Origin: an uncultured Planctomycetales bacterium
Lineage (GTDB): Bacteria > Omnitrophota > Gorgyraeia > Gygaellales > Profunditerraquicolaceae
Reading direction: 5' to 3'
DNA: 64,000 bases
Assembly: GCA_964542785.1 (NCBI GenBank)
Contig: CAZIUK010000001.1
Coordinates: 133,115 to 197,114 of the forward strand
Position 1 is the first letter of the stretch. Every line of letters begins with the position of its first letter. The notes below the pieces were generated by a model. It did not search any database. It was given only the letters and a program-made list of their open reading frames with translations, and had not been told where the DNA came from. Position numbers and translations under genes: made by a program. This document shows positions 3,649 to 61,223 of the stretch, in pieces.

Positions 3649-3667
3649 TTAAGGGGAAATTAAAATA

Positions 3668-4645: not shown

Positions 4646-4654
4646 TAAATAAAG

Positions 4655-5578: not shown

Positions 5579-5583
5579 TAGAG

Positions 5584-5616
5584 GCAGTCCCTGTATTGCT
5601 GAGCGGGGACAGTCCC
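5584..5616 (+). repeat. GC-rich element after fabD containing CAGTCCCTG and palindromic GGGGACAGTCCC
   Basis: Shares the GGGGACAG core with family-2 palindromes; CAGTCCCT is directly repeated. Confidence 0.35.
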
Positions 5617-5642
5617 TAGAATTTATAACAAGGAGAATTAAT

Positions 5643-6386
5643 ATGAGGCTAAAAAATAAAGTTGCTTTTATAACCGGGTCTGCCCAAGGCATAGGCAGGG
5701 AAATTGCCTTAACCTTTGCTAAGGAGGGGGCGGATATTGTTGTTGCAGATTTAAACCTTGATTTAGCTGCCAAGACTGCCTCTGAGATTGAGAGTTTAGG
5801 CAGAAAAGCCATGGCTTTAGAGCTGGATGTCACTGATTACGCAAAAGTAGAAGAAGGGGTGAACAAAATTCTTGACAAATTTGGAAAGGTTGATATATTA
5901 GTTAACAATGCCGGGATTAATAAGGATAATCTCCTTATCAGGATGTCTCAGGCAGAGTGGGATGCAGTTATAAATGTAAACTTAAAAGGTACTTTTAATT
6001 GCATTAAGGCTGTCTCCCGCCCCATGATTAAGCAGAGAAGCGGTAAGATAGTAAATATCGCTTCCATAATTGGGCTTATGGGTAATTGGGGGCAGGCAAA
6101 TTACGCCGCCTCTAAAGCAGGGATAATTGCTCTTACTAAAACCGTGGCAAAAGAATTTGCCACCCGTAATATCAATGCCAATGCAGTTGCCCCGGGTTTT
6201 ATCCAGACTGATATGACTGCTAAGCTTCCGGAGGATGTGAAAAAAAAGATGCTGGAGGCTATTCCTATGGCAAAGTTAGGGGTACCTGAGGATGTTGCCA
6301 ACCTTTGTTTATTTTTGGCCTCAGAAGAATCAAGCTATATTACAGGGCAGGTTATTACTATAGACGGCGGAATGGTGATGGCATAA
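5643..6386 (+). CDS. fabG: 3-oxoacyl-ACP reductase FabG (SDR)
   Basis: [12 protein letters not shown] Rossmann motif, NNAGI, YAASKAG catalytic motif. Confidence 0.85.
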
Positions 6387-6405
6387 AAACAAGGAGGAAA
6401 AAAGA

Positions 6406-6645
6406 ATGTCAGTTCAAGAAAAAGTTAAGTCAATTATAGCAGAGCAGTTAGGAGTTAAACCCGAAGAGGTTACACCCGAGGCTTCTTTTGTAGATGATTT
6501 AGGAGCAGATTCTTTGGATACGGTAGAGCTTGTCATGGCCTTAGAAGAAGAGTTTGGTATAGAGATACCAGATGAGGATGCTGAAAAGATATCTAAGGTC
6601 GCTGATGCTATTAAGTATATTGAAGAGAAGAGCGCCAACAAATAA
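6406..6645 (+). CDS. acpP: acyl carrier protein
   Basis: [21 protein letters not shown] phosphopantetheine attachment site. Confidence 0.9.
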
Positions 6646-6673
6646 TACCTTGATTATAGATTAATTTGAAACC

Positions 6674-6710
6674 TACCCCGCTATTTTTTTAACTGGCGGG
6701 GTAAGTTTTA
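6674..6710 (+). terminator. putative rho-independent terminator/attenuator after acpP
   Basis: TACCCCGC / GCGGGGTA stem (14-nt loop) followed by AGTTTTA. Confidence 0.4.
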
Positions 6711-6729
6711 GTAGCGCAAAAGTTAAAAT

Positions 6730-7974
6730 ATGAGTAAAAATAGAGTAGTAATTACAGGTTTAGGGGTAATTTCTCCTGTAGGAAACGATATTTCGTCTTT
6801 TTGGGGTTCGTTAGTAGAAGGTAAGGGCGGGGTTGGTCCTTTAACTAGCTTTGATCCTATAAATTTTGATTCACGTATTGCTGCTGAGGTAAAAGGTTTT
6901 GACCCTTCAAGCGTTGGAATGGACCATAAAGAGGCGCGGCGCACAGCTAAGTTTGTTCAATATGCGGTTGCTGCTAGCCATCAGGCAATAATTTCTTCCG
7001 GTCTTGATTTAAATAAAGAGGATAAAGAGAGGATTGGGGTATTAATTGGCTCTGGTATTGGTAGCCTCTATACAATAGAAGAAGAGCATAAGGTTATGCT
7101 TAATAAAGGCCCTGCGCGTATGTCCCCATTTCTTATCCCCATGCTTATTGTCAATGAAGCTAGTGGTTTTGTAGGTATTAACTTTGGGCTTAAAGGCCCT
7201 AATTTTTGCATTGCTACTGCTTGTGCTTCAGGCTCGCATTCTATAGGAGATGCCTTTAGGATTATAGAGAGGGGTGAAGCTGATGTGATGATTACCGGCG
7301 GGACAGAGAGTTGTATTGTTCCTACCGCTGTTGGAGGGTTTTGTGCTCTAAGGGCGCTATCTAAAAGAAATGATGAACCGCAAAAAGCATCTCGTCCCTT
7401 TGACCGCGACAGGGATGGTTTTATTATGGCAGAAGGCTGCGGCTTGGTAGTCTTAGAATCCCTTGATCATGCAATAAAAAGAAACGCCCAGATTATTGCC
7501 GAGATAGTAGGTTTTGGCATGACTTGCGATGCGTTTCATATTACAGCTCCTGATCCTGAAGGAGAAGGGGCGGCAAAGGCTATGTCTTTAGCCTTAACTG
7601 ATGCTAAACTTAACCCTGAGGATGTGGATTATATTAACGCACATGGGACATCTACTAAGCTAAATGATAAAATAGAAACTCTTTCTATAAAGAAAGTCTT
7701 TGGTAATTATGCCAAAGAGGTAATGATCTCCTCAACTAAATCTGTTACCGGCCATCTCTTAGGTGCTGCCGGGGGTGTTGAGTTTTTGGCTTGTTGTCTT
7801 GCTATTAGAGACCAGGTTGTGCCGCCAACAATAAATTATGACCACCCTGACCCCGAATGCGACCTTGATTATATTCCCAATGCTGCCCGTAAAGATAAGG
7901 TAGAAGTATGTGTTTCTAATTCCCTTGGCTTTGGAGGGCATAATGCTACTTTAGTTGTAAAGAAATTTAAATGA
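6730..7974 (+). CDS. fabF: 3-oxoacyl-ACP synthase II FabF
   Basis: [13 protein letters not shown]-terminus, ATACASG active-site Cys, HGTST, GFGGHN. Confidence 0.9.
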
Positions 7975-9233: not shown

Positions 9234-9273
9234 TATGAAGGATTGTCCCGTTTAACCCAGGAAGTTTGAGTTT

Positions 9274-9327
9274 GGGGACAGCGACTTTTAAGCGACTTTT
9301 TAATAGGGTATAAAAGTCGCTGTCCCC
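9274..9327 (+). repeat. long perfect palindrome (family 2): GGGGACAGCGACTTTTA ... TAAAAGTCGCTGTCCCC, 17-bp arms, 20-nt loop containing a third AGCGACTTTTT copy
   Basis: Perfect inverted repeat immediately downstream of leuC; related copy at 29317-29354. Confidence 0.8.
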
Positions 9328-9349
9328 ATTAAACATTAAAAGGTGTATT

Positions 9350-19583: not shown

Positions 19584-20762
19584 ATGAAAAAAGAAGAAAT
19601 ATTCGATAGCTATCAAGAAAATATAATGCCTACATACTCAAAATCCCCTTTAATTTTTGTAAAGGGTAAAGGTTCAAGGTTGTGGGATATACATAATAAT
19701 CTTTATTTAGATTTTTTCCCGGGTTGGGGTGTTGGGAACTTAGGGCATTGTCATTCTAAGGTTATGTCAGCGATAAGAGACCAAGTGTCAAGGTTGATAT
19801 TTGTACCTAATAATTATTACCATGTTCCCCAGGCAAGGTTGGCAAGAGAGTTAGTTTTATCTTCTTTTCCTGCAAAGGTATTTTTTTGTAACTCCGGGGC
19901 AGAGGCAAATGAGGGGGCGATAAAATTTGCGCGTAAATTTGGCTCCGGAAGGTATGAGATAATTACTTTTGAGGGCTCTTTTCACGGTAGGACAATGGCT
20001 ACTTTAAGCGCTACGGGACAGAAAAAATACCAGCAGGGTTTCGAGCCTCTGCTGCAAGGGTTTAAGGCGGTTAAGTTTAATGATCTTCAGGCGGTTAAAG
20101 ACGCAATAACTGATAAGACTATAGGAATCATGCTTGAGCTTATTCAAGGAGAAGGGGGCATAAACGTAGCAGATAAGGATTTTGTTTTGGGTTTAAGAAG
20201 GCTCTGTGATGAGAAGGGCTTACTTTTGATTGTAGATGAAGTGCAGACCGGGATCGGCAGGACAGGAAAATTGTTCTCCTATCAACATTACGGGATAACC
20301 CCGGATATTATGACTTTGGCAAAAGCTCTTGGAGCAGGGGTGCCTATTGGTTGTATGTTAGTTAAAAAAGACATTGCAGATACCTTAACCGCAGGCACTC
20401 ATGCATCTACTTTTGGTGGCGGGCCGGTAATATGTAAGGCTGCACTTGCTGTCTTAAGGGCGATAAAAAAAGAAAAATTACTTATTAACGCCCAAAAGAT
20501 GGGTGAATATATGTTTACTCTGCTTAATGCGCTTAAAGGTAAGCATCAGGCTATAAAAGATATAAGAGGCATAGGCTTAATGGCAGGAGTTGAGTTAAGG
20601 GTTGAAGGCAAGGCAATAGTACAGGAGTGTATGAATAGGGGGTTATTGATTAACTGCACTCAAGAGAAGGTTTTAAGATTGATGCCTGCTTTAAATGTAA
20701 AGAAGAAGGAGATTGCTAAAGCCATCTTTACTTTAGACAGCGTTCTGGGGGACGCTTCCTAA
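19584..20762 (+). CDS. argD: acetylornithine aminotransferase
   Basis: Class III PLP aminotransferase (DEVQTGIGRTGK); last codons and stop lie inside a REP element. Confidence 0.85.
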   Translation: MKKEEIFDSYQENIMPTYSKSPLIFVKGKGSRLWDIHNNLYLDFFPGWGVGNLGHCHSKVMSAIRDQVSRLIFVPNNYYHVPQARLARELVLSSFPAKVFFCNSGAEANEGAIKFARKFGSGRYEIITFEGSFHGRTMATLSATGQKKYQQGFEPLLQGFKAVKFNDLQAVKDAITDKTIGIMLELIQGEGGINVADKDFVLGLRRLCDEKGLLLIVDEVQTGIGRTGKLFSYQHYGITPDIMTLAKALGAGVPIGCMLVKKDIADTLTAGTHASTFGGGPVICKAALAVLRAIKKEKLLINAQKMGEYMFTLLNALKGKHQAIKDIRGIGLMAGVELRVEGKAIVQECMNRGLLINCTQEKVLRLMPALNVKKKEIAKAIFTLDSVLGDAS

Positions 20763-20805
20763 GGTGCCAGGCTCCAGGAAAGTTTACTTAAAAATTATGA
20801 AAAAG
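20745..20805 (+). repeat. REP-like element copy A (CTGGGGGACGCTTCCTAAGGTGCCAGGCTCCA + conserved tail ...TTACTTAAAAATTATGAAAAA)
   Basis: About 85% identical to 61114-61178 and shares GGGGACGCT..AAGGTGCCAGGCTCCA with 46648-46680 and the inverted copy at 47387-47404. Confidence 0.8.
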
Positions 20806-29309: not shown

Positions 29310-29316
29310 TATAAAT

Positions 29317-29354
29317 GGGGACAGCCACTTTTTTATAAAAAAGTGGCTGTCCCC
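29317..29354 (+). repeat. 38-bp perfect palindrome (family 2): GGGGACAGCCACTTTTTTATAAAAAAGTGGCTGTCCCC
   Basis: Downstream of dapL stop; differs from 9274 copy by G to C in the left arm matched by a complementary change in the right arm. Confidence 0.8.
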
Positions 29355-29368
29355 ATCTAAGATTTAAT

Positions 29369-31716: not shown

Positions 31717-31758
31717 ACAGGGACGGCTCTGTTTCTTAAAATATAGAACCGTCCCTGT
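31717..31758 (+). repeat. GC-rich hairpin ACAGGGACGG...CCGTCCCTGT (10-bp stem) between the small basic gene and uvrA
   Basis: Perfect 10-bp inverted repeat; motif GGGACGGCTCTG resembles the REP core GGGGACGCTCTCC. Confidence 0.5.
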
Positions 31759-37357: not shown

Positions 37358-37549
37358 ATGGCAAGGCTTATAAACATAGATGAATTGGCAGATTACCTTA
37401 AACTTAAGAAGCAGACTATTTATAATTGGCTTAATCAGGGTAAGATATCCGGTATAAAGGTAGGAGGAGTTTGGAGATTTGAGAGGAAGGATATTGATAG
37501 TTGGATTAAGAGCCGTAAACGTATATCCACGTCAGGAGATAAAAAATGA
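37358..37549 (+). CDS. excisionase-family helix-turn-helix DNA-binding protein
   Basis: LADYLKLKKQTIYNWLNQGKISGIKVGGVWRF is a MerR-superfamily / excisionase-type HTH; 4-nt overlap (ATGA) with the pilM-pilN start. Confidence 0.5.
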   Translation: MARLINIDELADYLKLKKQTIYNWLNQGKISGIKVGGVWRFERKDIDSWIKSRKRISTSGDKK

Positions 37550-39105
37550 ATAAGTTAGGCATATATTTTGGCCCCAACTTTATAAATTTTACTGAAACCA
37601 AAGGGAAAAAGCTAATAAATAATATTCAGGTTCCTTTTCTTGAGGCTTTAGATATGGAATTAGAAGAGAAAGTCCCTTTAGAGATAAAACTGGTAGCCGT
37701 TATTAATGAGACGCTAAGAACCGGTAGGATAGAAGCTAAAGAGGTTTCTCTTGTTTTATCAGGCAGGGACTTTATTATTCGCAGTTTTGAAATGCCGCAT
37801 TTGCCTAAAGAAGAGTTGGCTAGCGCTGTAAGATTTGAGGCAAAGAAGTATATCCCCTTTAAGGTTGAAGAGCTTGTTTCTGATTTTCAGGCTCAGGTGG
37901 CAAAGTCTTCTCGTATAAATAATATCCTATTTATGGGGCTTAAAAAAGATATACTTGAGAGGTATCTTACTGTTTTTAAGCAAGTTAATATTAAGGTCCG
38001 CAGATTAGAGTATTCAGGTTTTAGCATATTAAGAGGGCTTAAGCTTTTAAGGGTAAAGGAGAGCGGTATTATAGGCGTTCTTTGCGCTGATTTTTCTGGG
38101 GGGGATGATGCTAATTTTATAGTCCTTGAGAACGGTTTCCCACTTTTTAGTAGAGATATCAATTTGGCTTCAGGCCCTATACTTCAAGCAGGAACAGGTG
38201 ATTTCCAAGCTGAACCACAGGCTTTTTTAGATAAGTTAAAATCAGAGATGCGCATTTCTTTAGATTACTACCAACGTAAGTTTCCAGAAAAGAGAATTCA
38301 GCGCGTATTTTCTTTTATTAACCATGATTATTATCAGGAGCTTGAGTCTTATATGTCTGAATTTTACATCCCTTTTAAGCTCCTTGACTTTAATAAGCTT
38401 ATAGGCAGTGGCAGGGCTTATTCTTTAGGGCTTGTTAAAAGTTTTGGCGCATCTTTAGCTGATGTTATTCCTACTAAAGTAAAGATAAATCTTTCTGAGG
38501 TTAAGGCAGTGTCTAAGAGCGTAGGTGTAACTGATGCTAAATTTGATTTAGGCAATTTTTTAAAAGATGTTAAAATAGATTTACGTGTTATATTCTTAGG
38601 TATTTTTATCTGTATTGCCGCTTTTGCCTATAGTTTTTACAAGATTGTTCCGGTTAAAGAAGAATTAAATTCTGTAATTAAAAAAAGGGTAACACCAGGG
38701 GATATTGACCCTAATCTAAGCTTAAGCCAGCTTTCTGAGGTCGGCGCCGGATATAAGCAGAGGTTAAAGACTTTCGATAAATTGATAAAAGGAAAGTTTT
38801 ATCTTACTAAGGCATTAGATTCTATACCCCGGTGTATCCCTGAAGGAGTATGGCTTGTTAAATTCTCCTTTAATGAAGAAGCAGGCAAGCTTTCTTTATT
38901 GCTTGAGGGCAGGAGTTATCTGCGTTCTGCGGATAAAGAGTTTGAGGCGGTGAATAAATTTGTTAATAATTTAAAGAACGACTTTGTTTTATCAAATTAT
39001 TTCACAGGGATTGAATTAAATTCTGTAAAGTACGACACAACAGAGGATAAAGTACCTATAACTAAGTTTAATTTAATTTGCAAAAACTATAAGGATACTA
39101 GATAG
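37546..39105 (+). CDS. pilM: type IV pilus assembly protein PilM fused to a PilN-like TM and periplasmic domain
   Basis: Actin-like PilM domain (residues 1-330), single TM (LRVIFLGIFICIAAFAYSFY), then about 150-aa periplasmic PilN-like domain. Confidence 0.65.
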   Translation: MNKLGIYFGPNFINFTETKGKKLINNIQVPFLEALDMELEEKVPLEIKLVAVINETLRTGRIEAKEVSLVLSGRDFIIRSFEMPHLPKEELASAVRFEAKKYIPFKVEELVSDFQAQVAKSSRINNILFMGLKKDILERYLTVFKQVNIKVRRLEYSGFSILRGLKLLRVKESGIIGVLCADFSGGDDANFIVLENGFPLFSRDINLASGPILQAGTGDFQAEPQAFLDKLKSEMRISLDYYQRKFPEKRIQRVFSFINHDYYQELESYMSEFYIPFKLLDFNKLIGSGRAYSLGLVKSFGASLADVIPTKVKINLSEVKAVSKSVGVTDAKFDLGNFLKDVKIDLRVIFLGIFICIAAFAYSFYKIVPVKEELNSVIKKRVTPGDIDPNLSLSQLSEVGAGYKQRLKTFDKLIKGKFYLTKALDSIPRCIPEGVWLVKFSFNEEAGKLSLLLEGRSYLRSADKEFEAVNKFVNNLKNDFVLSNYFTGIELNSVKYDTTEDKVPITKFNLICKNYKDTR

Positions 39106-39106
39106 G

Positions 39107-39625
39107 ATGGATATATTAGCGGTTATTAACGAAAATAAAAATAAGTTTTTTGCTTTAGTTGTTATTCTATTTGCTTTTCTGATTGCTTACAGAATTTACG
39201 AATGGCGAGGTTCTCAAATTGCCTCTTTAAGTTCCGGTATAGTTGAAGAAGAAGAAAAGAATAAGATATTGGTTGATATAGGAAAGTTAAATGAAGGGCT
39301 TAACTTATATTATGCTCTTTTGGCTAAGCAGGATTCAGGCGTGGCTATGTCAGACATTAATAATATAGCAAAGGATACGGGGGTTAAGATTGCATCTATG
39401 CAGCCATTGGGAGAATCTTTGTCTGCAGAATACTCAAAATTTAGTTTTGATCTTTCTGTGGTTGCCCCTGATTACAATGTTTTAGCTAAATTTATCAATA
39501 GATTAGAAACATTTGAGCGCATTTATTTTATTGAATATTCAAATATTGATTCGCCTTCTTATAATAAAGATAAAGAGTTAAGGGTAAATTTACGTATAAG
39601 CACAATAGTGCTTTTAAAAAGATGA
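39107..39625 (+). CDS. pilO: PilO-like inner-membrane pilus assembly protein
   Basis: N-terminal TM, coiled coil, C-terminal ferredoxin-like region; position after pilMN. Confidence 0.4.
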   Translation: MDILAVINENKNKFFALVVILFAFLIAYRIYEWRGSQIASLSSGIVEEEEKNKILVDIGKLNEGLNLYYALLAKQDSGVAMSDINNIAKDTGVKIASMQPLGESLSAEYSKFSFDLSVVAPDYNVLAKFINRLETFERIYFIEYSNIDSPSYNKDKELRVNLRISTIVLLKR

Positions 39626-40092
39626 AAAACATAACAAGTTGTTTTATATTCCTTTTTATTATTATATTTTTGCAAGGAATTATAAATATTGCAAAACTTA
39701 AAGCTGAATCACCCAAAGATATATACGAGAATATACAGAAAGAATTCGGTAAAGGGCTTACAATAGAGGCTACGGACTTACGCCCAAAGGTAGAATACAG
39801 GGCTGATACCTTAAGGAATCCTTTTGAGCAGCCTTTAGTGTTTACAGAATCCGAAGAAGATGTGTCTTTCCAAGATAAAGACGAAAAGATCGCTCCTGAT
39901 TTAGTGGTTCAGGGCCTTATTTGGGGTAGTAGCCTGCCACAGGCGATTATAAATAATAAAGTAGTAAAAGTAGGAGATGTTATACAAGGGGCTGATATTA
40001 TAGATATAAGCAAAGAAGGGGTTTTAGTACTTTTTGCAGGTACAGAATATAAATTATCCACAAAGCCTGCCATGGGTCGGCAGGAGAGATAG
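39622..40092 (+). CDS. pilP: PilP-like pilus assembly protein
   Basis: Signal peptide; C-terminal beta domain (VVQGLIWGSSLPQAIINNKVVKVGDVIQGADIIDI) paralogous to 54948-55316. Confidence 0.4.
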   Translation: MKNITSCFIFLFIIIFLQGIINIAKLKAESPKDIYENIQKEFGKGLTIEATDLRPKVEYRADTLRNPFEQPLVFTESEEDVSFQDKDEKIAPDLVVQGLIWGSSLPQAIINNKVVKVGDVIQGADIIDISKEGVLVLFAGTEYKLSTKPAMGRQER

Positions 40093-40107
40093 AAAATAGG
40101 AGGGGCT

Positions 40108-41697
40108 ATGAAAATTAATTTGAAGGTTTTTTTATTCGCTATACTTATTTTAAATTTTACCTTTACTCCTTATATTTACGCTTTAGGTGAGATGCTCCCC
40201 GTGCCAAAAGATCAACCGCTTATTTCTATGGATCTTCAGGACGCTTCTTTAAAAGATGTGCTTAAGATATTATCAATGCAGTCCGGCCTTAACTTTGTAG
40301 CTTCTGAGGCTGTATCAGATAGGACGCTTACTCTTTATGTAGATAAAGTTCCCCTTAAAGAGGCGATGGATAAGATATTTAAGGCCAATAACCTTTCTTA
40401 TGAGTTAGATGATGAGGCAAGTTTATTTATTGTCAAGGATTGGGGAACGCCTGAGGCAGAAACCATAACCGAAATATTTTACCTAAAACATGCTACGGTC
40501 TCGTCTTCTTCTTTAAAAGAAGAGATGAAGAGTATTTTAAATACTGATAATGAATCTAGCTCGTCTAGCTCATCATCATCTTCATCTTCATCATCTTCTT
40601 CTTCGGGTAGTTCTAATTCGGAAGATACCGGTAAATGGAAAGTGGAAGAAGAGGCTGGTATTACCCAGACAGTTAAAAGGCTTCTTTCTAAGGACGGCAA
40701 GGTTATAGAAGACTTTCGCACTAATTGCCTTATTGTTACGGATATGCCTTCGCGCATGCCGGTTATCCGCAAGGTTATCGCATCTTTGGATGTGGCTGTG
40801 CCGCAGGTTATGATGGAGGTAGAGATTTTAGATGTTAGTAAGGATGTAGTTGACCAGATGGGTTTTAAGTTTGGCCAGACCCCTTTATCTATAGCTATAA
40901 CAGGAGGGCAGGCAACAGCAGGATTTCCGTATCATAGTTGGGCAAAAGCATTCGCAGGAGGTTACGGCGCAATAGATATTAATAATGATATAACCGGAGG
41001 CCCTTATAAAGTTCAGTTAGATTTCTTGCGAACCCATACAGATACTAAGTTTTTAGCAAGGCCAAGACTTCTTTCTTTGAACAATGAGACTGCTGAGATT
41101 AAGATTACTACTGAAGAAGCTATAGGTGTAAAAACTACTACTGCCGCTGCAGGAGGGGTTGTGGGGAGCGAGACAGTAGAGGCAGAGCGTTTTGAGACAG
41201 GTATATCTTTAAGAGTTACTCCTCAGGTTGATTTAGCCAGTAAAGAGATTACGATGTTTATCTATCCTAAGGTTGCTGAAGCCTCAACAACTAAAGCTAC
41301 TTTTGCTGCAGCCGGGCATACCTATGATTTTGCTAATCCAGAAGTGCGCAGCACTAAGACTATAGTGCGCGTTAAGGATGGAGAGACAATGGTCTTGGGG
41401 GGATTGATACGTAAGCAGCATGCTACTGTTGTAACCAAGCTACCAATATTAGGAGATATTCCTTTTTTTGGCGCATTTTTTAGGCATAAGTCCTACTCCC
41501 CGGGTAAAGATAGGGAACTCTTAGTCTTTATCACTCCGCGCATAATTAATGATGGAGTTTATACAGAGAAGGCTGAAGGGGCTTTAGCCCAGGTTAAAAG
41601 AATGGCGCTTCCTAACCGCGAACAATCTACGGCAACAGTGATAAGCCGGCAGTCAAGCATAAACACTTATTTAAACGCCTTAGAAAATCAACGTTAA
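40108..41697 (+). CDS. pilQ: type IV pilus secretin PilQ with poly-Ser linker
   Basis: Secretin C-domain (VRVKDGETMVLGGLIRK, LPILGDIPFFGAFFRHKS, RELLVFITPRII); signal peptide; 24-residue Ser tract. Confidence 0.8.
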   Translation: MKINLKVFLFAILILNFTFTPYIYALGEMLPVPKDQPLISMDLQDASLKDVLKILSMQSGLNFVASEAVSDRTLTLYVDKVPLKEAMDKIFKANNLSYELDDEASLFIVKDWGTPEAETITEIFYLKHATVSSSSLKEEMKSILNTDNESSSSSSSSSSSSSSSSSGSSNSEDTGKWKVEEEAGITQTVKRLLSKDGKVIEDFRTNCLIVTDMPSRMPVIRKVIASLDVAVPQVMMEVEILDVSKDVVDQMGFKFGQTPLSIAITGGQATAGFPYHSWAKAFAGGYGAIDINNDITGGPYKVQLDFLRTHTDTKFLARPRLLSLNNETAEIKITTEEAIGVKTTTAAAGGVVGSETVEAERFETGISLRVTPQVDLASKEITMFIYPKVAEASTTKATFAAAGHTYDFANPEVRSTKTIVRVKDGETMVLGGLIRKQHATVVTKLPILGDIPFFGAFFRHKSYSPGKDRELLVFITPRIINDGVYTEKAEGALAQVKRMALPNREQSTATVISRQSSINTYLNALENQR

Positions 41698-41712
41698 CGT
41701 TAAGAAATATTA

Positions 41713-43434
41713 ATGATTAATAAAGGTAAGCATATAAGATTAGGAGAGCTATTGCTTCAGGCAGGCCTAATTAATGCTGGGCAACTAGAGAAGGCTATAA
41801 GTATCCAGCGTCAAGAGGGAGGAAAGTTAGGGGAAGTTTTAGTTAAGCTAGGGATAGTTAAAGAAGACCAAGTGGTCTCTATCTTAGCCCAGCAACTTAA
41901 AGTGCCTTTTTTTTCTTTAGGCACTGGGATGTTAAAGCCTGCCCTTGACCAGGGGTTAGAGCGTTTAATCCCGCATGAATTTGCCCTGAAGAACTCTGTC
42001 CTGCCCCTATCGCGTACTTTAAGGTCTTTGACTATAGCTATGTCAGATCCGTTAGATTTAGTCCTTATAGATAACCTTGAAAGGATTACTAATTGTGAAA
42101 TTAACCCGGTTATCGCCAGCAGCACTGATATTAAAAAAGCAGTGGGCAATTTCTATGGTAAATCTTCGGCAATGCTTAATCAAGCGGTTAAAGATAGTTA
42201 TGATATTTCTGATGATTTAAATTTGGAGCAGGCTGAAGATGGACAGGAGTTAAGTTTAGATAAGTTGGCAGAACGGGCAGAAGAGGCTCCCGTAGTTAAA
42301 TTGGTTGATTTAATTATAAGGCAAGCGATTAATGAGAGGGCCTCGGATATTCATATAGAGCCTTTTAAAAATAATATTTCTTTAAGGTATCGCATAGACG
42401 GAAAGCTCTATGAGATTCCTCCTCCAGCCAAACACTTACATTTACCGATAACATCCCGTATTAAGATACTTTCAAAACTGGATATCGCTGAAAAACGGCT
42501 TCCCCAAGATGGAGCTTTTTTTGTTAGGATAGAGGAATATCCGATAGATATACGTGTTTCTTCCGTACCTACTATATATGGCGAAAAGATAGTAATGCGT
42601 TTATTGGATAGGAGGGAGGTAGTTTTAGATTTAAATAGGCTTGGGTTTGAGCCAAAACAGCTTGAGATTATACGCAAAGGTATAAATGCCCCTTATGGCT
42701 TAGTTTTTTTAACCGGCCCCACAGGCTCAGGTAAAACAACGACTCTGTATGCGATGTTAAGCGAGATTAAGAGCCCGACAAAAAACATAGTTACTGTTGA
42801 AGATCCGGTAGAGTATAGATTAGACGGAATTAATCAAGTGCAGATTAAGCCGGAGATAGGTTTAACCTTTGCTTCTGCCTTGCGTAGTTTTTTAAGGCAG
42901 GATCCTGATGTAATGTTAGTTGGGGAGGTGCGCGACCTTGAGACTGCCCAGATATGTATTCGTTCGGCCTTAACCGGGCACCTTGTTTTAAGCACCCTCC
43001 ACACCAATGATGCGCCTACAGCAGTAAGCAGGCTTATGGATATAGGCATAGAGCCTTATATGTTAGCCCCTTCGTTATTGCTAATAGTAAGCCAGAGGCT
43101 TTTAAGAAAGCTTTGTCCTGCCTGCAAAGAGGCATATGAGCCGGATAGGGTCCAAGCTTCTGCCTTGGGGTTAAAAGCAGAGCTTCTTTACAGGGCCAAG
43201 GGCTGCCCTAAGTGCAATAATATAGGATATAAGGGGAGAGTTAGTGTATCAGAGGTACTGTGGGTTAATGAGGAGATTAGAATCCTTATAAACCAGAGGG
43301 CATCTTTTCAGAAGATACGGGAGGTTGCCAAGGCTAACGGCATGCAAATGCTATATGAATCAGGTTTACGTAAGGCAGAGCAGGGGATTACTTCTTTAGA
43401 GGAAGCATCCAGCCTTGCTTTAGGAGTAGAATAA
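41713..43434 (+). CDS. pilB: type IV pilus assembly ATPase PilB with N-terminal MshEN (c-di-GMP-binding type) domain
   Basis: Tandem RLGxxLLxxGLIxxxxLxxAIxxQ motifs at N-terminus, Walker A GPTGSGKTTTLYA, tetracysteine CPACKE...CPKC. Confidence 0.85.
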   Translation: MINKGKHIRLGELLLQAGLINAGQLEKAISIQRQEGGKLGEVLVKLGIVKEDQVVSILAQQLKVPFFSLGTGMLKPALDQGLERLIPHEFALKNSVLPLSRTLRSLTIAMSDPLDLVLIDNLERITNCEINPVIASSTDIKKAVGNFYGKSSAMLNQAVKDSYDISDDLNLEQAEDGQELSLDKLAERAEEAPVVKLVDLIIRQAINERASDIHIEPFKNNISLRYRIDGKLYEIPPPAKHLHLPITSRIKILSKLDIAEKRLPQDGAFFVRIEEYPIDIRVSSVPTIYGEKIVMRLLDRREVVLDLNRLGFEPKQLEIIRKGINAPYGLVFLTGPTGSGKTTTLYAMLSEIKSPTKNIVTVEDPVEYRLDGINQVQIKPEIGLTFASALRSFLRQDPDVMLVGEVRDLETAQICIRSALTGHLVLSTLHTNDAPTAVSRLMDIGIEPYMLAPSLLLIVSQRLLRKLCPACKEAYEPDRVQASALGLKAELLYRAKGCPKCNNIGYKGRVSVSEVLWVNEEIRILINQRASFQKIREVAKANGMQMLYESGLRKAEQGITSLEEASSLALGVE

Positions 43435-44675
43435 TGCCTAAATTTTTTTATATTGTCAGGGATAGGCTGGGTAAGAAGATTACCGGAATTCAGGAAGCCA
43501 TAACCCAAGAAGAAGCAATAAACACTCTTCAGTCAAAAGGTTTTGTTGTTGTTAATATTATCCCTGAGAAACAAGAAGATAAGGCTAATGCCTCTATTGT
43601 AGCATCTGGGAGGGGGAGGTTTGTCTCTAAGCATAATAAGATTACTGGGGATGATCTTGTTATTTTTTGCCGTCAGTTAGCTACACTTATTGGGGCGGGT
43701 ATTACTATTTTAAGAAGTTTAAATATTATTTCCCAGCAGGTGGCAAGCAAGAGGTTGCATCAAATTATTCAAGAGCTAGAAAAGCATATGGAAGCTGGGC
43801 TGAGCCTGCATGAAGCAATAGCTAAATATCCTACTGTTTTTTCACCGCTTTGGACTAATCTTATAGAGAGTGGAGAAGCAAGCGGGAATTTGAGTTTGGT
43901 ATTAAACCGCCTTGCTGGCTATTTAGAGCGCAACGCTGCTTTTAGGAAAAAGATAGTTTCTGCGCTTATCTATCCTGCTATACTGATGGTTACCGGGTTA
44001 GGTGCGCTTTTATTTATGACAATTAAGATTATCCCTACCTTTGCCGAAATATTTACTGGCTTTAATGTCGAACTTCCGTTTTTAACTAAAATGCTTTTGT
44101 TGACAAGTTTCTATATCAGAAAATTCGGGATTATTATAGTCGTAACAATAGGAATTATATTTTGGTTTTTACGCAGGTATGTAAAGACTCGTGAGGGTAA
44201 GAGGGCGTTTCAATTATTTTTATTAAAACTTCCTATTGTTAGTGATTTTTTTAGGAATATCTCCATAGAGCGCTTTACTTCTGAAATGTTTACTTTGATT
44301 GAAAGTGGAGTGCCCATACTTTATTCTCTAGAGATATCAGAGCGTAGCGTGGATAATGTTATCTTAGGAGACATTATACGCAAGGTTAAAGAAGAAGTGC
44401 GTGAAGGCAAACTTTTAGGGCAATCGTTAGAAAAGAGCGGTTTTTTTGATCCTATGGTATCACAGATGATTAGCATAGGAGAAGAGGTAGGTGAGCTGCC
44501 CGGCATGTTTAAAAAGCTCAATGCCTTTTATCAGGAGCATCTAGAGGTTTTTACTACCCGTTTTACTTCAATCTTTGAACCGGTAATGCTTATTTTTATG
44601 GGTGTAGTTATCGGGATAATGATTATAGGGTTATTTTTGCCGATATTTAAGATATCACAAATTAGCGGAGGTTAA
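43434..44675 (+). CDS. pilC: type IV pilus platform protein PilC (GspF family)
   Basis: Two GspF repeats, 3 TM segments; ATG overlaps pilB stop. Confidence 0.85.
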   Translation: MPKFFYIVRDRLGKKITGIQEAITQEEAINTLQSKGFVVVNIIPEKQEDKANASIVASGRGRFVSKHNKITGDDLVIFCRQLATLIGAGITILRSLNIISQQVASKRLHQIIQELEKHMEAGLSLHEAIAKYPTVFSPLWTNLIESGEASGNLSLVLNRLAGYLERNAAFRKKIVSALIYPAILMVTGLGALLFMTIKIIPTFAEIFTGFNVELPFLTKMLLLTSFYIRKFGIIIVVTIGIIFWFLRRYVKTREGKRAFQLFLLKLPIVSDFFRNISIERFTSEMFTLIESGVPILYSLEISERSVDNVILGDIIRKVKEEVREGKLLGQSLEKSGFFDPMVSQMISIGEEVGELPGMFKKLNAFYQEHLEVFTTRFTSIFEPVMLIFMGVVIGIMIIGLFLPIFKISQISGG

Positions 44676-44754
44676 AAAAAACTTGCTTTTTTTGTAAGCT
44701 TAAGTATAATAAAAACCAATATAACAAAGATAATAGTTTTAAAAAAGGAGGTGA

Positions 44755-45147
44755 ATGGATATGAAAAGAAAAGGTGGTTTTACTTTGGTTGAAATCGTTG
44801 TAGTAATTATAATTGTAGGCATATTAGCTGCTTTGGGTTTTACGCAATATACTAAGGTAGTGGAAAAAGGACGTACTGCTGAAGCTAAGTCTATTTTAGG
44901 TGCACTTAGGACAGCGCAACAGGCAAAACATTTGGAGACCGGCGCTTATGCAACTGTACCTAATTTGCCTGTGGAGGCGCCTTCTAGCTGCGCTAATACT
45001 CATTATTTTAGCTATGCATGTACTACTACTGGGACTTGTACTGCTACAAGATGTACTAGTGGAGGTAAGGCACCCCAGGGTCCCTCTAGGTATACTCTTA
45101 ATCTTTCTATTGATGGGGAGTGGGGCGGAACAGCGGGTTATTATTAA
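44755..45147 (+). CDS. type IV pilin (prepilin-type N-terminal cleavage/methylation domain)
   Basis: KGGFTLVEIVVVIIIVGILAA class III signal; Cys-rich C-terminal D-region. Confidence 0.75.
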   Translation: MDMKRKGGFTLVEIVVVIIIVGILAALGFTQYTKVVEKGRTAEAKSILGALRTAQQAKHLETGAYATVPNLPVEAPSSCANTHYFSYACTTTGTCTATRCTSGGKAPQGPSRYTLNLSIDGEWGGTAGYY

Positions 45148-45251
45148 TTTAATTTTAACAAGACGTTTTATTGAGCAGGGTATTATTCTGTTATTTTAGC
45201 AGTTAGTAATGCTTTGCTCAATAAGCGTTTAAAAAAATATTAAAGGCTGAT

Positions 45252-45671
45252 ATGTCAGAAAACAATAGACACTCCTTTACTCTCATAGAAGTTTTAGTTG
45301 TTATAGTCATTATTGGTATTCTTTCTGCAATAGCTATCCCGAATTTTAACAAGACAAAGTATAATGTTTTAAGTAAAGAGGCAGTCTCTAATATCAGACT
45401 TATTGCTGCGGCTGAGAAAATATATAAGATGGAGAGCGATGAAGATGTGTATGATTCTTGCGATAATACTGCGGAATGTAATGATACCCTTAAGTTGGAT
45501 TTAAATGACTCTAATTGGGTTTATAGCGTTAAAACTACCTCTACCCCTTTAAGCGTAGCTACGATAAAAGCGGAATTAAAAGGGAATTTAAATTGCACAT
45601 ATACTTTAACTAGTAGTGATTTTAATGCCGATCCTGAAAAATCACGCAACTGCCCTGACGGGATGATTTAA
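45252..45671 (+). CDS. prepilin-type minor pilin
   Basis: RHSFTLIEVLVVIVIIGILSAIAIPNF. Confidence 0.6.
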   Translation: MSENNRHSFTLIEVLVVIVIIGILSAIAIPNFNKTKYNVLSKEAVSNIRLIAAAEKIYKMESDEDVYDSCDNTAECNDTLKLDLNDSNWVYSVKTTSTPLSVATIKAELKGNLNCTYTLTSSDFNADPEKSRNCPDGMI

Positions 45672-45685
45672 GGTAAAAGTAAGAA

Positions 45686-46045
45686 GTGAATAAAAAAGCC
45701 TTAACCCTATTAGAAATCCTCGTCTCCTTAATCATTATTTCTTTAGTGATTACTGGCTTGGCAAGCACCTTTGTAATTGGAAAGCGTTATATTTATAAAA
45801 GCAGGTTAAAGATTTCAGGCGCAGAATTAGGAAAGTATTTTTTAGACTCTCTTCAGAGGCATGTTAATTATTCTACTTGGTATGATACGGACAACTCCTT
45901 AGGCCCTAAAGGTCCCAAAAAATATTTTGAAAAAATAACTATAGATGACAGGGATTACAAGGGTACTTATGAAATCGATACTGTTGACTCGTCGGATAAT
46001 CTTACCAAGGTAACGGTTTCTATAACTTTGCCTGCTATTGAATAA
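45686..46045 (+). CDS. prepilin-type minor pilin (PilV/GspI-like)
   Basis: KKALTLLEILVSLIIISLVI; Glu5 present. Confidence 0.55.
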   Translation: MNKKALTLLEILVSLIIISLVITGLASTFVIGKRYIYKSRLKISGAELGKYFLDSLQRHVNYSTWYDTDNSLGPKGPKKYFEKITIDDRDYKGTYEIDTVDSSDNLTKVTVSITLPAIE

Positions 46046-46638
46046 TGCCTTACCAGAATAAATCTATAACCTTAATGGAGCTTTTGATAGCACTTGTCTT
46101 AATGGGGCTTGTTATCCTCGGTATAAATAGTATTACTATATTCAGCCGTTATCAACTTATCTCTCTTGACCGCAGGATTAAAGTACAGAACGATCTTTCT
46201 TTTTGCCTGGATCATATTGCTAAAAGAGGTTTAAGTACCATAGGTAATGAAAAGGTTTTTGGCGAGAAAACAGCTGTTGTGATTGAGACAGACACTTCTT
46301 TGGCGCTTTATATTGACGCTCCTAGATCTTCTCTTGGCATTAGGGATGTTAACGACTATTGGATAAAATATACTTTTGATAAGTCTTCTAACCGGTTGTT
46401 GTATTGCAGTAATTGCGGGGCTTCTTCTGCCTGTCTTAATTGTAGAGAGGAAGGGAAAGAAGAGGTTTTATCTGGCATAATAACTTCTTTTAAGCCCGGT
46501 AAAAATTTTAGCGAAGGGAATTATGTATATGTTAAAATTTCAGGCCGTTGGGACCCTTCTAAGGAAAAGGATTCTGTAGATAATCCCGAAGTAATTATGC
46601 GCTCTACCATTTACTTGCCATCCGTCTCCACCAACTAA
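46045..46638 (+). CDS. prepilin-type minor pilin (PilW/GspJ-like)
   Basis: NKSITLMELLIALVLMGLVILG; ATG overlaps preceding stop. Confidence 0.55.
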   Translation: MPYQNKSITLMELLIALVLMGLVILGINSITIFSRYQLISLDRRIKVQNDLSFCLDHIAKRGLSTIGNEKVFGEKTAVVIETDTSLALYIDAPRSSLGIRDVNDYWIKYTFDKSSNRLLYCSNCGASSACLNCREEGKEEVLSGIITSFKPGKNFSEGNYVYVKISGRWDPSKEKDSVDNPEVIMRSTIYLPSVSTN

Positions 46639-46647
46639 ACCCTAAAT

Positions 46648-46680
46648 CCTGGGGGACGCTCTCCAAGGTGCCAGGCTCCA
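46648..46680 (+). repeat. REP-like element copy B (left flank of RAYT)
   Basis: CCTGGGGGACGCTCTCCAAGGTGCCAGGCTCCA. Confidence 0.8.
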
Positions 46681-46762
46681 TTCGTAAGCCAATCTAATCG
46701 CAACAATTTTAGTTAGATTTTTAGTTTTCTTACGTCTATTAGTTGTAGAGGAGGTGGTTAGA

Positions 46763-47353
46763 ATGCCTAGAGCAAATAGGTTGATTTTGGACAGAGGGTA
46801 TTACCATGTCTTTACAAGAGGTAATGACCGAAAGCAAATATTTAGAAAAGATGCGGATTATCAGGTTTTTATTTCTATCGTAAAACGATACCTAAAAGAA
46901 GTTTTATTGGCAATAACAAATTATTGTTTAATGCCGAATCATTTACATTTGCTTATCTTTACTGAACGAGGAGATGATCTCTCTATTTTTATGAAGAATA
47001 TCCTACAGGTATATGCTAATTACCACAGAAAGGAATATAATTCCGTAGGGTTTCTTTATCAGAATAGGTTTAAAAGTTTATTAATAAATAATGATAGTTA
47101 TTTGTTAGAATGTTCCAGGTATATAGAGCGCAATCCATTACGGGGAAAATTAGTAAGCAATATATTTGATTGGCCTTGGAATAGTTTTTCCTACTATGCA
47201 AAAGGAGATACTAATGGTATAATTACCAAAGAAAATCCGGCCTTTCAATCTTTAGGTAGCTTACTTAAAGACAGAAGAACCTCTTATATTAATTATGTTT
47301 TACAGGAAAGGCCCTATGATGAGATTCTTGATAAGGTATTTGAATTAAAATAA
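46763..47353 (+). CDS. REP-associated tyrosine transposase (RAYT; IS200/IS605 Y1 HUH transposase family)
   Basis: YHVFTRGN, HUH motif MPNHLHLL, catalytic-Tyr motif RYIERNPL; ATG 46763 preceded by GGAGGTGG RBS (track start 46754 is GTG). Confidence 0.75.
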   Translation: MPRANRLILDRGYYHVFTRGNDRKQIFRKDADYQVFISIVKRYLKEVLLAITNYCLMPNHLHLLIFTERGDDLSIFMKNILQVYANYHRKEYNSVGFLYQNRFKSLLINNDSYLLECSRYIERNPLRGKLVSNIFDWPWNSFSYYAKGDTNGIITKENPAFQSLGSLLKDRRTSYINYVLQERPYDEILDKVFELK

Positions 47354-47355
47354 GT

Positions 47356-47404
47356 CCTTGGGGACGTTCCCCAAGTGCCTGACACCTGGAGAGCGTCCCC
47401 CAGG
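47356..47404 (+). repeat. REP-like elements copy C (right flank of RAYT; hairpin plus inverted copy of left REP)
   Basis: CCTTGGGGACGTTCCCCAAG, then TGCCTGACACC, then TGGAGAGCGTCCCCCAGG. Confidence 0.8.
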
Positions 47405-47415
47405 GGACAGGTTTG

Positions 47416-47491
47416 GGGGCTGTAGCTCAGCTGGGAGAGCGCCTCGTTCGCAACGAGGAGGCCAGCGGTTCGATCCCGCTCAGCTCCACCA
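47416..47491 (+). tRNA. tRNA-Ala (anticodon CGC)
   Basis: 76-nt cloverleaf: acceptor GGGGCTG/CAGCTCC with G3:U70 Ala identity pair, D-stem GCTC/GAGC, anticodon loop TTCGCAA, T-arm AGCGG-TTCGATC-CCGCT, encoded CCA. Confidence 0.85.
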
Positions 47492-60077: not shown

Positions 60078-61179
60078 AAGGATAGTAATAAAGATAGGCT
60101 CAAGCCTTTTTTATGCTAAGGACGCTAAGCCCGATACTGCTGTAATCAGTAGTTTTACTAAAGAGATAGCAAATTTAATCCTTATAGGAAAAGAGGTGGT
60201 GCTTGTCTCCTCAGGCGCAGTTGCCTTAGGGATGTCCATATTAAAGATAGCTAAGAGGCCTAAGGATTTAAGCCTTTTGCAGGCAGCTGCTTCAATTGGC
60301 CAGCATGAGTTAATGCATTTGTATAGTACTTTTTTTAAGAAGCTATCCTTATCCTGCGGGCAGATACTTTTAACTTGGGATGATTTCTCAAACCGCGCGC
60401 GTTATTTAAACGCCAAAAATACTATCAACACACTTTTAAAACTAAAAAGTGTGCCGGTAATTAACGAAAATGATACCGTCTCTACTGAGGAGATAAAGTT
60501 TGGGGACAACGACCGGCTTTCAGCTTTGGTCGCGGCCATGGTAGGGGCTGATATTTTGGTTATTCTTTCAGATATAGACGGGTTATTGGATAAAAATAAA
60601 AAAGTTATCAAGGTTGTAGATAAAATTACCCCAGAGATTAAGGCGTTGGCATCTTCTACTAAAAGGACAACTTCTGTTGGGGGGATGGTTACAAAGTTAG
60701 ATGCTGTTTTAGTTGCTAACCGTTCAGGTATCCCTTGCGTAATAGCCAACGGCAGAAAAAAAGATATTCTTCAATCTGTTTTAGGCGATCCTCTAAATAG
60801 TGGCACGCTTTTTTTAGCTGAAGGAGATAAGCTTGACGCTAAGGAGCGCTGGATGGCGTTTGGCACTAAGGTTAAAGGGAATATAACGGTTGATGACGGA
60901 GCAAAGAAGGCATTGATTAATAATAAGAGCTTGCTTGCAGTAGGAGTTGTCTCTTGTGCAGGTAATTTTTCTTGTGGAGATATAGTGGGGATTTGCGATG
61001 CTAAGGGTTGTGAGTTTGCCCGGGGCAAGGCCTTTATTTCAATGACAGAACTTGAGAAGGTAAAGGGAGCTCGCTTTGCCAAAGAAGTCATCCACCGCAA
61101 CAACCTTGTTTTACTTGGGGACGCTCCCCAAGGTGCCAGGCTCCAAACAAACTTACTTAAAAATTATGAAAAAAAATAG
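60055..61179 (+). CDS. proB: glutamate 5-kinase (with PUA domain); C-terminal about 20 aa encoded by a REP element
   Basis: IVIKIGSSLF amino-acid kinase N-terminus, PUA domain; ORF reads through REP copy D to TAG at 61177. Confidence 0.85.
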   Translation: MLLRKKYKRIVIKIGSSLFYAKDAKPDTAVISSFTKEIANLILIGKEVVLVSSGAVALGMSILKIAKRPKDLSLLQAAASIGQHELMHLYSTFFKKLSLSCGQILLTWDDFSNRARYLNAKNTINTLLKLKSVPVINENDTVSTEEIKFGDNDRLSALVAAMVGADILVILSDIDGLLDKNKKVIKVVDKITPEIKALASSTKRTTSVGGMVTKLDAVLVANRSGIPCVIANGRKKDILQSVLGDPLNSGTLFLAEGDKLDAKERWMAFGTKVKGNITVDDGAKKALINNKSLLAVGVVSCAGNFSCGDIVGICDAKGCEFARGKAFISMTELEKVKGARFAKEVIHRNNLVLLGDAPQGARLQTNLLKNYEKK

Positions 61180-61223
61180 GAATTTTAGAAGTAAAGTGGT
61201 ACCTCTGGGAGCGTCCCCAAGAG
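61114..61223 (+). repeat. composite REP-like element copy D: hairpin CTTGGGGACGCTCCCCAAG + GTGCCAGGCTCCA + conserved tail with ATG + inverted hairpin CTCTGGGAGCGTCCCCAAGAG
   Basis: 61114-61178 is about 85% identical to 20745-20805; 61203-61223 is an inverted copy of the REP core. Confidence 0.8.

Follow-up and report, generated by a model that had tools for sequence, protein, structure and literature searches.

A TIRYT-like Y1 transposase gene and its GGGGACG-headed inverted repeats in a Candidatus Omnitrophota genome

A Y1 transposase gene between inverted repeats

We analyzed a 64-kb stretch of DNA from a Candidatus Omnitrophota genome (contig CAZIUK010000001.1; the whole stretch is called the window, and copy counts of gene and repeat refer to it), in which an open reading frame (ORF) with the motifs of a Y1 tyrosine transposase lies between inverted copies of a short repeat. 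The window probably holds a TIRtron- or REPtron-type unit, that is, a fixed class 2 Y1 HUH gene with GGGGACG-headed inverted repeats of ~30 nucleotides (nt), the repeats having spread as non-autonomous elements. This reading is carried by the enzyme family and fold, the conserved catalytic residues, the synteny of the locus, the association of repeats and gene at 9 of 10 loci, the genome-specific co-variation of flanking and dispersed repeats, and orthologous sites that are filled in one genome and empty in another. The unit consists of the following features.

46648 to 46680, + strand: left terminal inverted repeat (TIR), CCTGGGGGACGCTCTCCAAGGTGCCAGGCTCCA, with the head GGGGACG invariant in 8 aligned loci
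46712 to 46740, + strand: upstream motif GTTAGATT-N13-CGTCTATT, invariant alignment columns in 8 loci (49 to 100% protein identity)
46763 to 47353, + strand: predicted class 2 TnpA_Y1 gene, encoding an HUH tyrosine nuclease/transposase like those of TIRYTs and of REP (repetitive extragenic palindrome)-associated tyrosine transposases (RAYTs), with HuH N59-H60-L-H62, Q100-N101-R102, and Y120-IERNP
47356 to 47375, + strand: inner repeat unit CCTTGGGGACGTTCCCCAAG, beside the right repeat and in the opposite orientation
47377 to 47404, − strand: right TIR, reverse complement CCTGGGGGACGCTCTCCAGGTGTCAGGC

Enzyme family and fold

The 196-amino-acid (aa) ORF runs on the + strand from an ATG at 46763 to a stop codon at 47353 (199 aa if read from the GTG at 46754) and was single copy in the window by tblastn. 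The motifs YHVFTRGN, MPNHLHLL, and RYIERNPL, from which a preliminary description of this DNA had called it a RAYT, were confirmed where they had been placed, and the proposed check against a Y1 profile gave a match to Pfam Y1_Tnp (PF01797) with an E-value of 3.5e-14 and 53.4 bits (cut-off, the gathering score, 23). The RAYT label itself stood only in part. The NCBIfam equivalog REP_Tyr_transpos (NF047646) scored 70.4 bits, under its curated RAYT cut-off of 80 bits, whereas transpos_IS200 scored 17.5 bits with a cut-off of 55 bits. Among solved structures, the best match was Escherichia coli TnpA_REP (4ER8; 21% identity), the only structure whose alignment spanned the entire core, Tyr motif and WP[WF]SSF block included; IS200-type chains (IS608, ISDra2, and IS200) aligned with the HuH half only. 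An AlphaFold (AF2) model from 28 homologues (pLDDT 87) confirmed the predicted HUH fold, with 4ER8 first in a Foldseek search (E = 2e-8, TM 0.73 on the target), the IS608 and ISDra2 transposases next, and a Foldseek probability of 1.00 for 4ER8, 2A6M, and 2XM3. Because of the 2 profile scores and the agreement of the structure and fold searches on 4ER8, we take the predicted protein to be a Y1/HUH enzyme that is nearer RAYT than IS200.

Across the 28 homologues (48 to 78% identity), H60, H62, Q100-N101-R102, and Y120 were invariant, as was N124 of the Y120-I-E-R-N-P motif, and I121, E122, R123, and P125 were at least 90% conserved. Most family members have FQ at the W position, where the window protein carries YQ. 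In the tail (residues 133 to 196), Pfam matched no domain even at E ≤ 10. Y---NP defines class 2 TnpA_Y1, the RAYT side, and Y---Q defines IS200 (PMC6006769), and by its Y---NP motif the predicted protein belongs to class 2 (RAYT sensu lato in the scheme of Quentin 2018).

Within class 2, the TIRYT/TIRtron systems of Di Nocera 2013 have repeats with the motif GGGGWSAS, i.e., GGGG[AT][CG]A[CG] (PMC3733652), and TIRYTs have been equated with TnpA_Y1 subclass 2.1 and with the Group 1 RAYTs of Bertels (Quentin 2018, PMC6006769; Group 1: PMC5581495). Subclass 2.1 proteins carry NHVH or NH[YF]H, W[EQ] or FQ, and YIELNP or Y[IV]HLNP (Table 1, PMC6006769), with a median length of ~238 aa and a conserved C-terminal helix-turn-helix (HTH)-like domain (DnaA_C/HTH_23/HTH_28-like) (PMC6006769). 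The set found here (NH[LI]H, [FY]Q, and YIERNP in 196 aa) is an exact fit to none of the subclasses and is nearest 2.1; NH[LI]H is not among the 2.1 variants, and YIERNP is one substitution from YIELNP.

The best plasmid-borne relatives were 30 to 37% identical to the window protein. On the Pseudomonas aeruginosa plasmid NZ_CP116719.1, a 230-aa "transposase" with the motifs NHVH, WE, and YIELNP is encoded by a gene bracketed by AAAGGGGACAGATTTATTTTCCCTA and its inverse, the right copy beginning at the stop codon, and these flanks are the published GGGGWSAS repeat (GGGGACAG repeats). The 2 proteins were 32% identical over 191 residues (pairwise E = 4e-38), the alignment stopping at residue 189 of the plasmid protein, whose last ~40 residues are without counterpart in the window protein. 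The plasmid protein has all published features of subclass 2.1, and the 32% identity to it is the sole proxy for placing the window protein in a subclass. The REP_Tyr_transpos model scored proteobacterial TIRYT-type proteins at 75.6 (this plasmid protein) and 77.9 bits, also just below 80. A profile search gave 3948 matches, of which the 120 listed were all Omnitrophota-type proteins of 195 to 223 aa and did not bear on the classification. By sequence comparison, the closest described relatives that we found appear to be TIRYT/TIRtron proteins (subclass 2.1, Group 1), and we file the ORF as a putative TIRYT-like class 2 enzyme with the subclass left unassigned.

Repeats flanking the gene

In the window, with a G+C content of 38.3%, the left repeat reads CCTGGGGGACGCTCTCCAAGGTGCCAGGC at 46648 to 46676. 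The preliminary description had given the right repeat as its reverse complement with 2 mismatches; the inverted arrangement held, and the actual difference of the copy at 47377 to 47404 is a 1-nt deletion and one mismatch. The extra hairpin that had been reported beside the right repeat was found at 47356 to 47375, and with the right repeat it makes a compact doublet (folding z = −3.0). Further units had been listed at 20745 and 61114, with an inverted one at 61203, for at least five copies in 64 kb; we recovered them all, the 19-nt core occurring six times at three loci (20745+, 46649+, 47357+, 47385−, 61114+, and 61203−). Beyond the short length of the unit, nothing favors a chance likeness of GC-rich palindromes in an AT-rich genome. 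A 25-mer search with ≤3 mismatches found 3 matches against 0.00 expected from 100 dinucleotide-preserving shuffles, the window arms have 33 nt in common at 91 to 94% identity and 60 nt at 87%, and in other genomes, too, the homologous gene has this core on its flanks, so that chance is refuted and we give it practically no weight.

GGGGACG-headed inverted repeats bracket the gene at 9 of 10 loci in six genomic contexts (GGGACG in the left repeat of locus L044; other loci are numbered likewise). At the loci compared, the left repeat lies ~115 to 140 nt upstream of the ATG, and the right repeat adjoins the TAG stop at most loci and lies ~30 to 50 nt past the stop in the clade of the window. The window repeats read GGGGACGC and GGTGCCAG, compared with the TIRYT motif GGGG[AT][CG]A[CG]. 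L043 and L046 have the exact form of this motif (GGGGACAC); L045 and the right arms at L004, L006, and L020 have GGGACAC, a near form. Further, the flanking-repeat variants of 5 genomes (L044, L009, L043, the window, and the metagenome-assembled genome [MAG] JAQUME01) recur in the dispersed copies of the same genome. The variant is the tail ...GGTGCCAGGCTCCA in the window, GGGGACGTCCTTCCAGGTACCACCC in L009 (with a 27/27 copy at 6731), GGGACGTTCCCCAAAGTGCCACCC in L044, and GGGGACGTTCCCCCAGGTACCACC in JAQUME01. By this association at 9 of 10 loci and this genome-specific co-variation, the repeats belong to the gene.

Between the left repeat and the start codon, the alignment of 8 upstream regions had as its only invariant blocks GGGGACG, AGG..CA, GTTAGATT, CGTCTATT, AGGAGG, and ATG. 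The AGGAGG is a ribosome-binding site (46749 to 46754) and follows the GTTAGATT-N13-CGTCTATT block, which was also identified in L004, L006, L009, L016, L020, L043, and L046. A consensus promoter scan made no call on this block. From its conservation we infer a promoter or operator and, since it is kept beyond ordinary promoter needs, it may be an operator for autoregulation.

Dispersed copies of the repeat

Away from the gene, copies were identified in three forms, namely single arms, doublets of ~105 to 110 nt, whose spacer is conserved among the copies of one genome, and compact doublets of ~60 to 75 nt. Two dispersed elements lie in the window.

20745 to 20804, + strand: singlet made up of a 33-nt arm and 27 nt in common with the 61114 copy (87% identity across the 60 nt)
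61114 to 61221, unstranded: inverted doublet of 108 nt, like a REPIN or a miniature inverted-repeat transposable element (MITE), with arms at 61114 to 61146 and 61196 to 61221

The copy at 20745 encodes the last 5 codons of argD with its TAA stop (LGDAS*), and the shared 27 nt hold the ATG of argF. The doublet at 61114 to 61221 folds as one long hairpin (free energy −28.7 kcal/mol, z = −7.6), makes ProB 21 residues longer than the L026 orthologue, which ends ...HRDNIVIL*, and contains both candidate ProA starts (ATG 61158 and GTG 61196). The ends of argD, proB, proA, and argF in the window are partly repeat-encoded, which is a warning for annotation. The majority of copies lie between genes or no more than ~60 nt from the end of an ORF, and the dispersed elements land mostly at junctions of tightly packed operons. 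In L039, a compact doublet sits exactly between the argG stop and the argH ribosome-binding site, where the window has 11 nt and no repeat, and a second doublet, absent from the window, replaces the argH 3' end. These filled and empty orthologous sites show gain or loss of elements. A reading-frame bias of the arm, which reads LGDA(P/L/S)... in argD, proB, PriA, and a giant ORF, was considered and dropped, as the L039 argH copy is in another frame and the independent events are too few.

The position of these copies between co-directional genes of operons would also fit host regulatory or structural elements (terminators, mRNA stabilisers, or protein-binding sites) that are independent of the gene lying between two of them. 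The occupation of the same proB|proA junction in two distant genomes, a terminator-like call on the inner hairpin (minus strand), and the host roles known for REPs elsewhere (PMC3733652) point the same way. However, the repeats flank the gene symmetrically at conserved distances at 9 of 10 loci in six contexts and co-vary with the dispersed copies of the genome, and Rfam found only tRNA in the whole window, the repeats matching no known RNA family. We therefore hold this explanation to be unlikely, with the qualification that elements mobilised by the enzyme could serve the host as well.

Inheritance of the locus

Orthologues with 68 to 69% identity occupy the same slot in three further Omnitrophota genomes (L004, L006, and L020), where the order is pilus/secretion genes, four pseudopilins, the transposase gene, tRNA-Ala (in L006 and L020, not L004), and Memo/AMMECR1. 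The neighbouring genes at this slot are 43 to 68% identical between the window and these genomes; the transposase gene has therefore stayed in place and diverged no faster than its neighbours, a pattern also described for domesticated RAYTs (PMC5581495). Homologues of ~50% identity were found in other genomic contexts, which implies relocation or transfer over longer timescales. All named homologues among the matches listed are from Candidatus Omnitrophota MAGs, and nearly all are 195 to 197 aa long.

An active autonomous insertion sequence (IS) of the IS200/IS605 superfamily, with the short copies as its MITEs, would likewise have a gene that matches Y1_Tnp and is bracketed by inverted repeats, and the ~50% homologues in unrelated contexts indicate that the unit moved or was transferred at some time. 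A related P. aeruginosa plasmid record also has 3 matching places. Against an active IS, the gene has one copy in 64 kb and keeps the same slot in four genomes beside neighbours of only 43 to 68% identity, the nearest protein clusters are each on one or few contigs, and no tnpB-like ORF is adjacent to the gene. The motif is Y---NP and not Y---Q (PMC6006769), and the IS200 model reached 17.5 of the 55 bits of its cut-off. We regard an active IS as quite improbable.

Proposed mechanism and points against it

On the reading of a fixed gene that serves dispersed repeats, and by analogy with E. coli TnpA_REP and with the TnpA proteins of IS608 and ISDra2, the enzyme would recognise the folded repeat on single-stranded DNA. 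It would cut and rejoin the repeat through Y120 with the HuH metal site, and would excise and reinsert doublets while its own gene stays put. The invariant GGGGAC(G) head may play the role that GTAG has in classical REPs.

Several observations weigh against a unit of this kind. We know of no biochemistry for any TIRYT, and cleavage and transposition by the window enzyme would follow by analogy only. The single arms at 46644 and 20741 folded no better than shuffles (z = +0.8 and +0.1), and at L045, 1 of the 10 loci, no recognisable right repeat was found. The window copies are 87 to 94% alike and not identical, and thus give no sign of recent activity. The window and L026, distant genomes whose enzymes are only 53% identical, both carry a doublet at the proB|proA junction. 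Either the doublet has persisted for a long time, which could be the case in place of mobility, or the site has been used more than once. Abundance is modest as well. A strict 25-nt pattern, which matches 4 of the 6 window units, gave 1 to 5 matches per Omnitrophota MAG in the genome collection, including 4 in one 292-kb contig, and the 20-kb loci of L004 and L006 hold no dispersed copy. The expectation of a single-copy RAYT with numerous REPs was supported for the gene within the window, with one copy, and was not supported for the repeats by the 1 to 5 strict matches per related genome.

The loci of L009, L043, and L044 have 2 to 5 dispersed copies each. A genome appears to hold tens of copies and perhaps as many as the low hundreds, which agrees with Group 1 (mean 12; PMC5581495). 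Under other taxonomic labels, the strict pattern was found on 7 contigs of a Eubacteriales-labelled MAG and as single matches in Aminicenantes- and Planctomycetales-labelled MAGs, with about five matches likely due to chance. A metagenome scan with the source-specific repeat tail returned one unrelated contig only.

More tentatively, we raise the possibility of a vertically inherited partnership of enzyme and repeats through much of Omnitrophota, in which a short TIRYT-like Y1 enzyme would service several families of GGGGAC-headed palindromes (the doublets and the GGGGACAGC and GGGACGGTTCT hairpins). GGGGAC would act as a GTAG-like guide or cleavage tag. Operon junctions, at which the elements contribute stop and start codons, and one linker in PriA would be places that tolerate the elements or to which they are targeted. 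This wider proposal is doubtful as it stands; if true, the partnership would supply a clear substrate for the Group 1/subclass 2.1 branch, which is large and biochemically uncharacterised, and a model for it that is tractable.

Comparison with described systems

The window unit and its relatives share with TIRYTs a RAYT-like Y1 gene between terminal inverted repeats and not GTAG hairpins, and moderately abundant dispersed repeat families that are often dimers, and repeats at the loci of relatives carry a motif of the GGGG-A/T-C/G-A-C/G type (GGGGACAC or GGGACAC). The low copy number of the flanking repeat resembles Group 1 (mean 12 per replicon; PMC5581495), Y---NP is present, and FQ stands at the W position in most members of the family of the window protein. 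In contrast to TIRYTs, the window protein has 196 aa versus a median of 238 and lacks the distal C-terminal HTH-like extension, and its family has the HuH motif NH[LI]H together with YIERNP, neither of which is listed for 2.1. Further, the outer head is GGGGACG here, with G and not A at position 7, and in the window clade the inner motif has turned into GGTGCCAG. Quentin et al. saw no REP-like structures near 2.1 genes, whereas hairpin-forming doublets are clear here.

Canonical RAYT/TnpA_REP proteins (E. coli YafM, 4ER8; Pseudomonas REPIN-RAYT) provide the best solved-structure and fold match of the ORF. They also resemble the unit in having a single-copy gene with conserved synteny and apparent vertical inheritance, with inverted copies of a repeat on its two sides and dispersed copies of this repeat, as inverted doublets that form long hairpins, in intergenic gaps of operons. 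However, the ORF is only 21% identical to 4ER8, its RAYT score is 70.4 versus 80 bits, the single arms at 46644 and 20741 are weak hairpins without a GT[AG]G foot, and the copy number is apparently tens and not hundreds. A GT[AG]G foot was not evident at the repeat ends by eye, no dedicated motif scan having been run. Because of the subthreshold score, the missing foot, and the 2 arms that fold no better than shuffles, the ORF is not a canonical GTAG-REP RAYT, and because the arms fold weakly and have no such foot, the repeats behave as terminal inverted repeats and inverted doublets and not as classical REP hairpins. The earlier picture of a RAYT lying within its own REP cluster therefore survives as a gene between inverted copies of a dispersed repeat, and its classical REP hairpins (no GT[AG]G foot; arms at z = +0.8 and +0.1) do not.

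With the TnpA proteins of IS200/IS605 elements (IS608 and ISDra2), the predicted enzyme shares the HUH/Y1 fold and the catalytic motifs and, presumably, recognition of hairpins on single-stranded DNA. It differs from them in Y---NP versus Y---Q, in ~55 aa of extra C-terminal region, in the lack of tnpB, and in its single copy at a fixed locus, and the unit has true inverted terminal repeats where those elements have distinct subterminal left-end and right-end hairpins.

The main case of a host keeping a transposase as one vertically inherited gene is that of RAYT-type enzymes with their repeats, and detailed work on them has nearly all been done on Gammaproteobacteria with GTAG REPs. The family described here shows a TIR-associated enzyme in an uncultured phylum related to the Planctomycetes-Verrucomicrobia-Chlamydiae group, with a repeat head kept across ~50% protein divergence, hairpin doublets, and insertion polymorphisms.

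That such systems are barely described outside Proteobacteria, as had been claimed, is an overstatement. Tagged REPs have been reported in 8 phyla, and class 2 TnpA_Y1 genes in ~25% of species (PMC3733652, PMC6006769). A RAYT-like gene flanked by inverted repeats, with dispersed families of moderate abundance and frequent dimers, is an architecture known since a 2013 description (PMC3733652), and its classification dates from 2017 to 2018. The largest branch is the TIR-associated one (TIRYT, subclass 2.1, Group 1), reported without REP-like structures near its genes (PMC6006769). In the literature searched, we found no earlier description linking Omnitrophota with RAYT or REPIN; the lineage seems undescribed for RAYT/REP systems, and the kind of system is known. 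The finding extends known biology and is not a new principle. Its useful particulars are a head motif conserved over deep divergence, doublets that are clear in a branch described as having no REPs, and overlap with coding sequence where operon genes meet.

Other palindromes, unusual occurrences, and neighbouring genes

Only two perfect hairpins with stems of 11 bp or longer (loop ≤60) were identified in the window, at 9273 to 9328 and 29315 to 29356. Both sit between co-directional genes and have the head TGGGGACAGC(G/C)ACTTTT, which fits GGGGWSAS better than the repeats flanking the gene, with stems of 18 and 21 bp and z = −8.8 and −10.6, respectively. A weaker GGGACGG(C/T)TCT palindrome lies at 31720 to 31755. 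The palindromes at 9273, 29315, and 31720 may be a second and third substrate family, or terminators. In related Omnitrophota, further families of long GGGGAC-headed palindromes, AGGGGACACTTTCCAACAG... and AAAGGGGACGGTTCTATTTTT..., occur in several copies per 20 kb, which suggests one head motif common to several repeat families. GGGGAC-headed palindromes were located as follows.

L004: 7295 to 7339, 8810 to 8854, 15565 to 15609, 8315 to 8365, and 14072 to 14122
L006: 14487 to 14529
L046: 7608 to 7658
L014: 5621 to 5655

A compact doublet of 67 to 74 nt was found in frame at the same position of PriA in three genomes (L014 3016 to 3082, L022 981 to 1054, and L042 1534 to 1601), in the linker just past the 3'-DNA-binding domain, where it encodes LGDA(P/L)QG...SVPQV. 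It echoes the intragenic REPs reported earlier in replication and repair genes (PMC3733652). At L031 3076 to 3108 (CAZAPC010000001.1, Planctomycetales label; MAG G+C 45%), a 33/33 copy of the left repeat of the window lies inside a giant ORF of >2600 codons and could reflect horizontal transfer, a mislabelled relative, or strong constraint. The repeat GGGGACGTTCCCCRAGGTGCCACCC was identified on seven contigs of the Eubacteriales-labelled MAG CAZKEW01 (L021, L028, L030, L034, L035, L040, and L041) and once each in two Aminicenantes MAGs (L029 and L038). L035 shares ~5 kb of gene order with window positions 3058 to 7971 at ~50% identity, and its taxonomic label is therefore doubtful. Cross-phylum transfer was considered for the Eubacteriales, Aminicenantes, and Planctomycetales matches, and no conclusion was drawn, as the labels may be unreliable.

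Downstream of the unit, a tRNA-Ala(CGC) gene (47416 to 47491) begins 12 nt past the right repeat. L006 and L020 have the same adjacency; in L004, the gene that immediately follows the transposase unit is instead one for an AAA_14/DUF4143 ATPase. The unit may originally have entered beside the tRNA gene. Directly upstream, positions 37546 to 46638 hold a complete type IV pilus/type II secretion-like cluster (PilM/N, PilO, secretin, ATPase, platform protein, and four to five pseudopilins), the order of which is kept in L004 and L006, and a second PilM-containing cluster starts near 52751.

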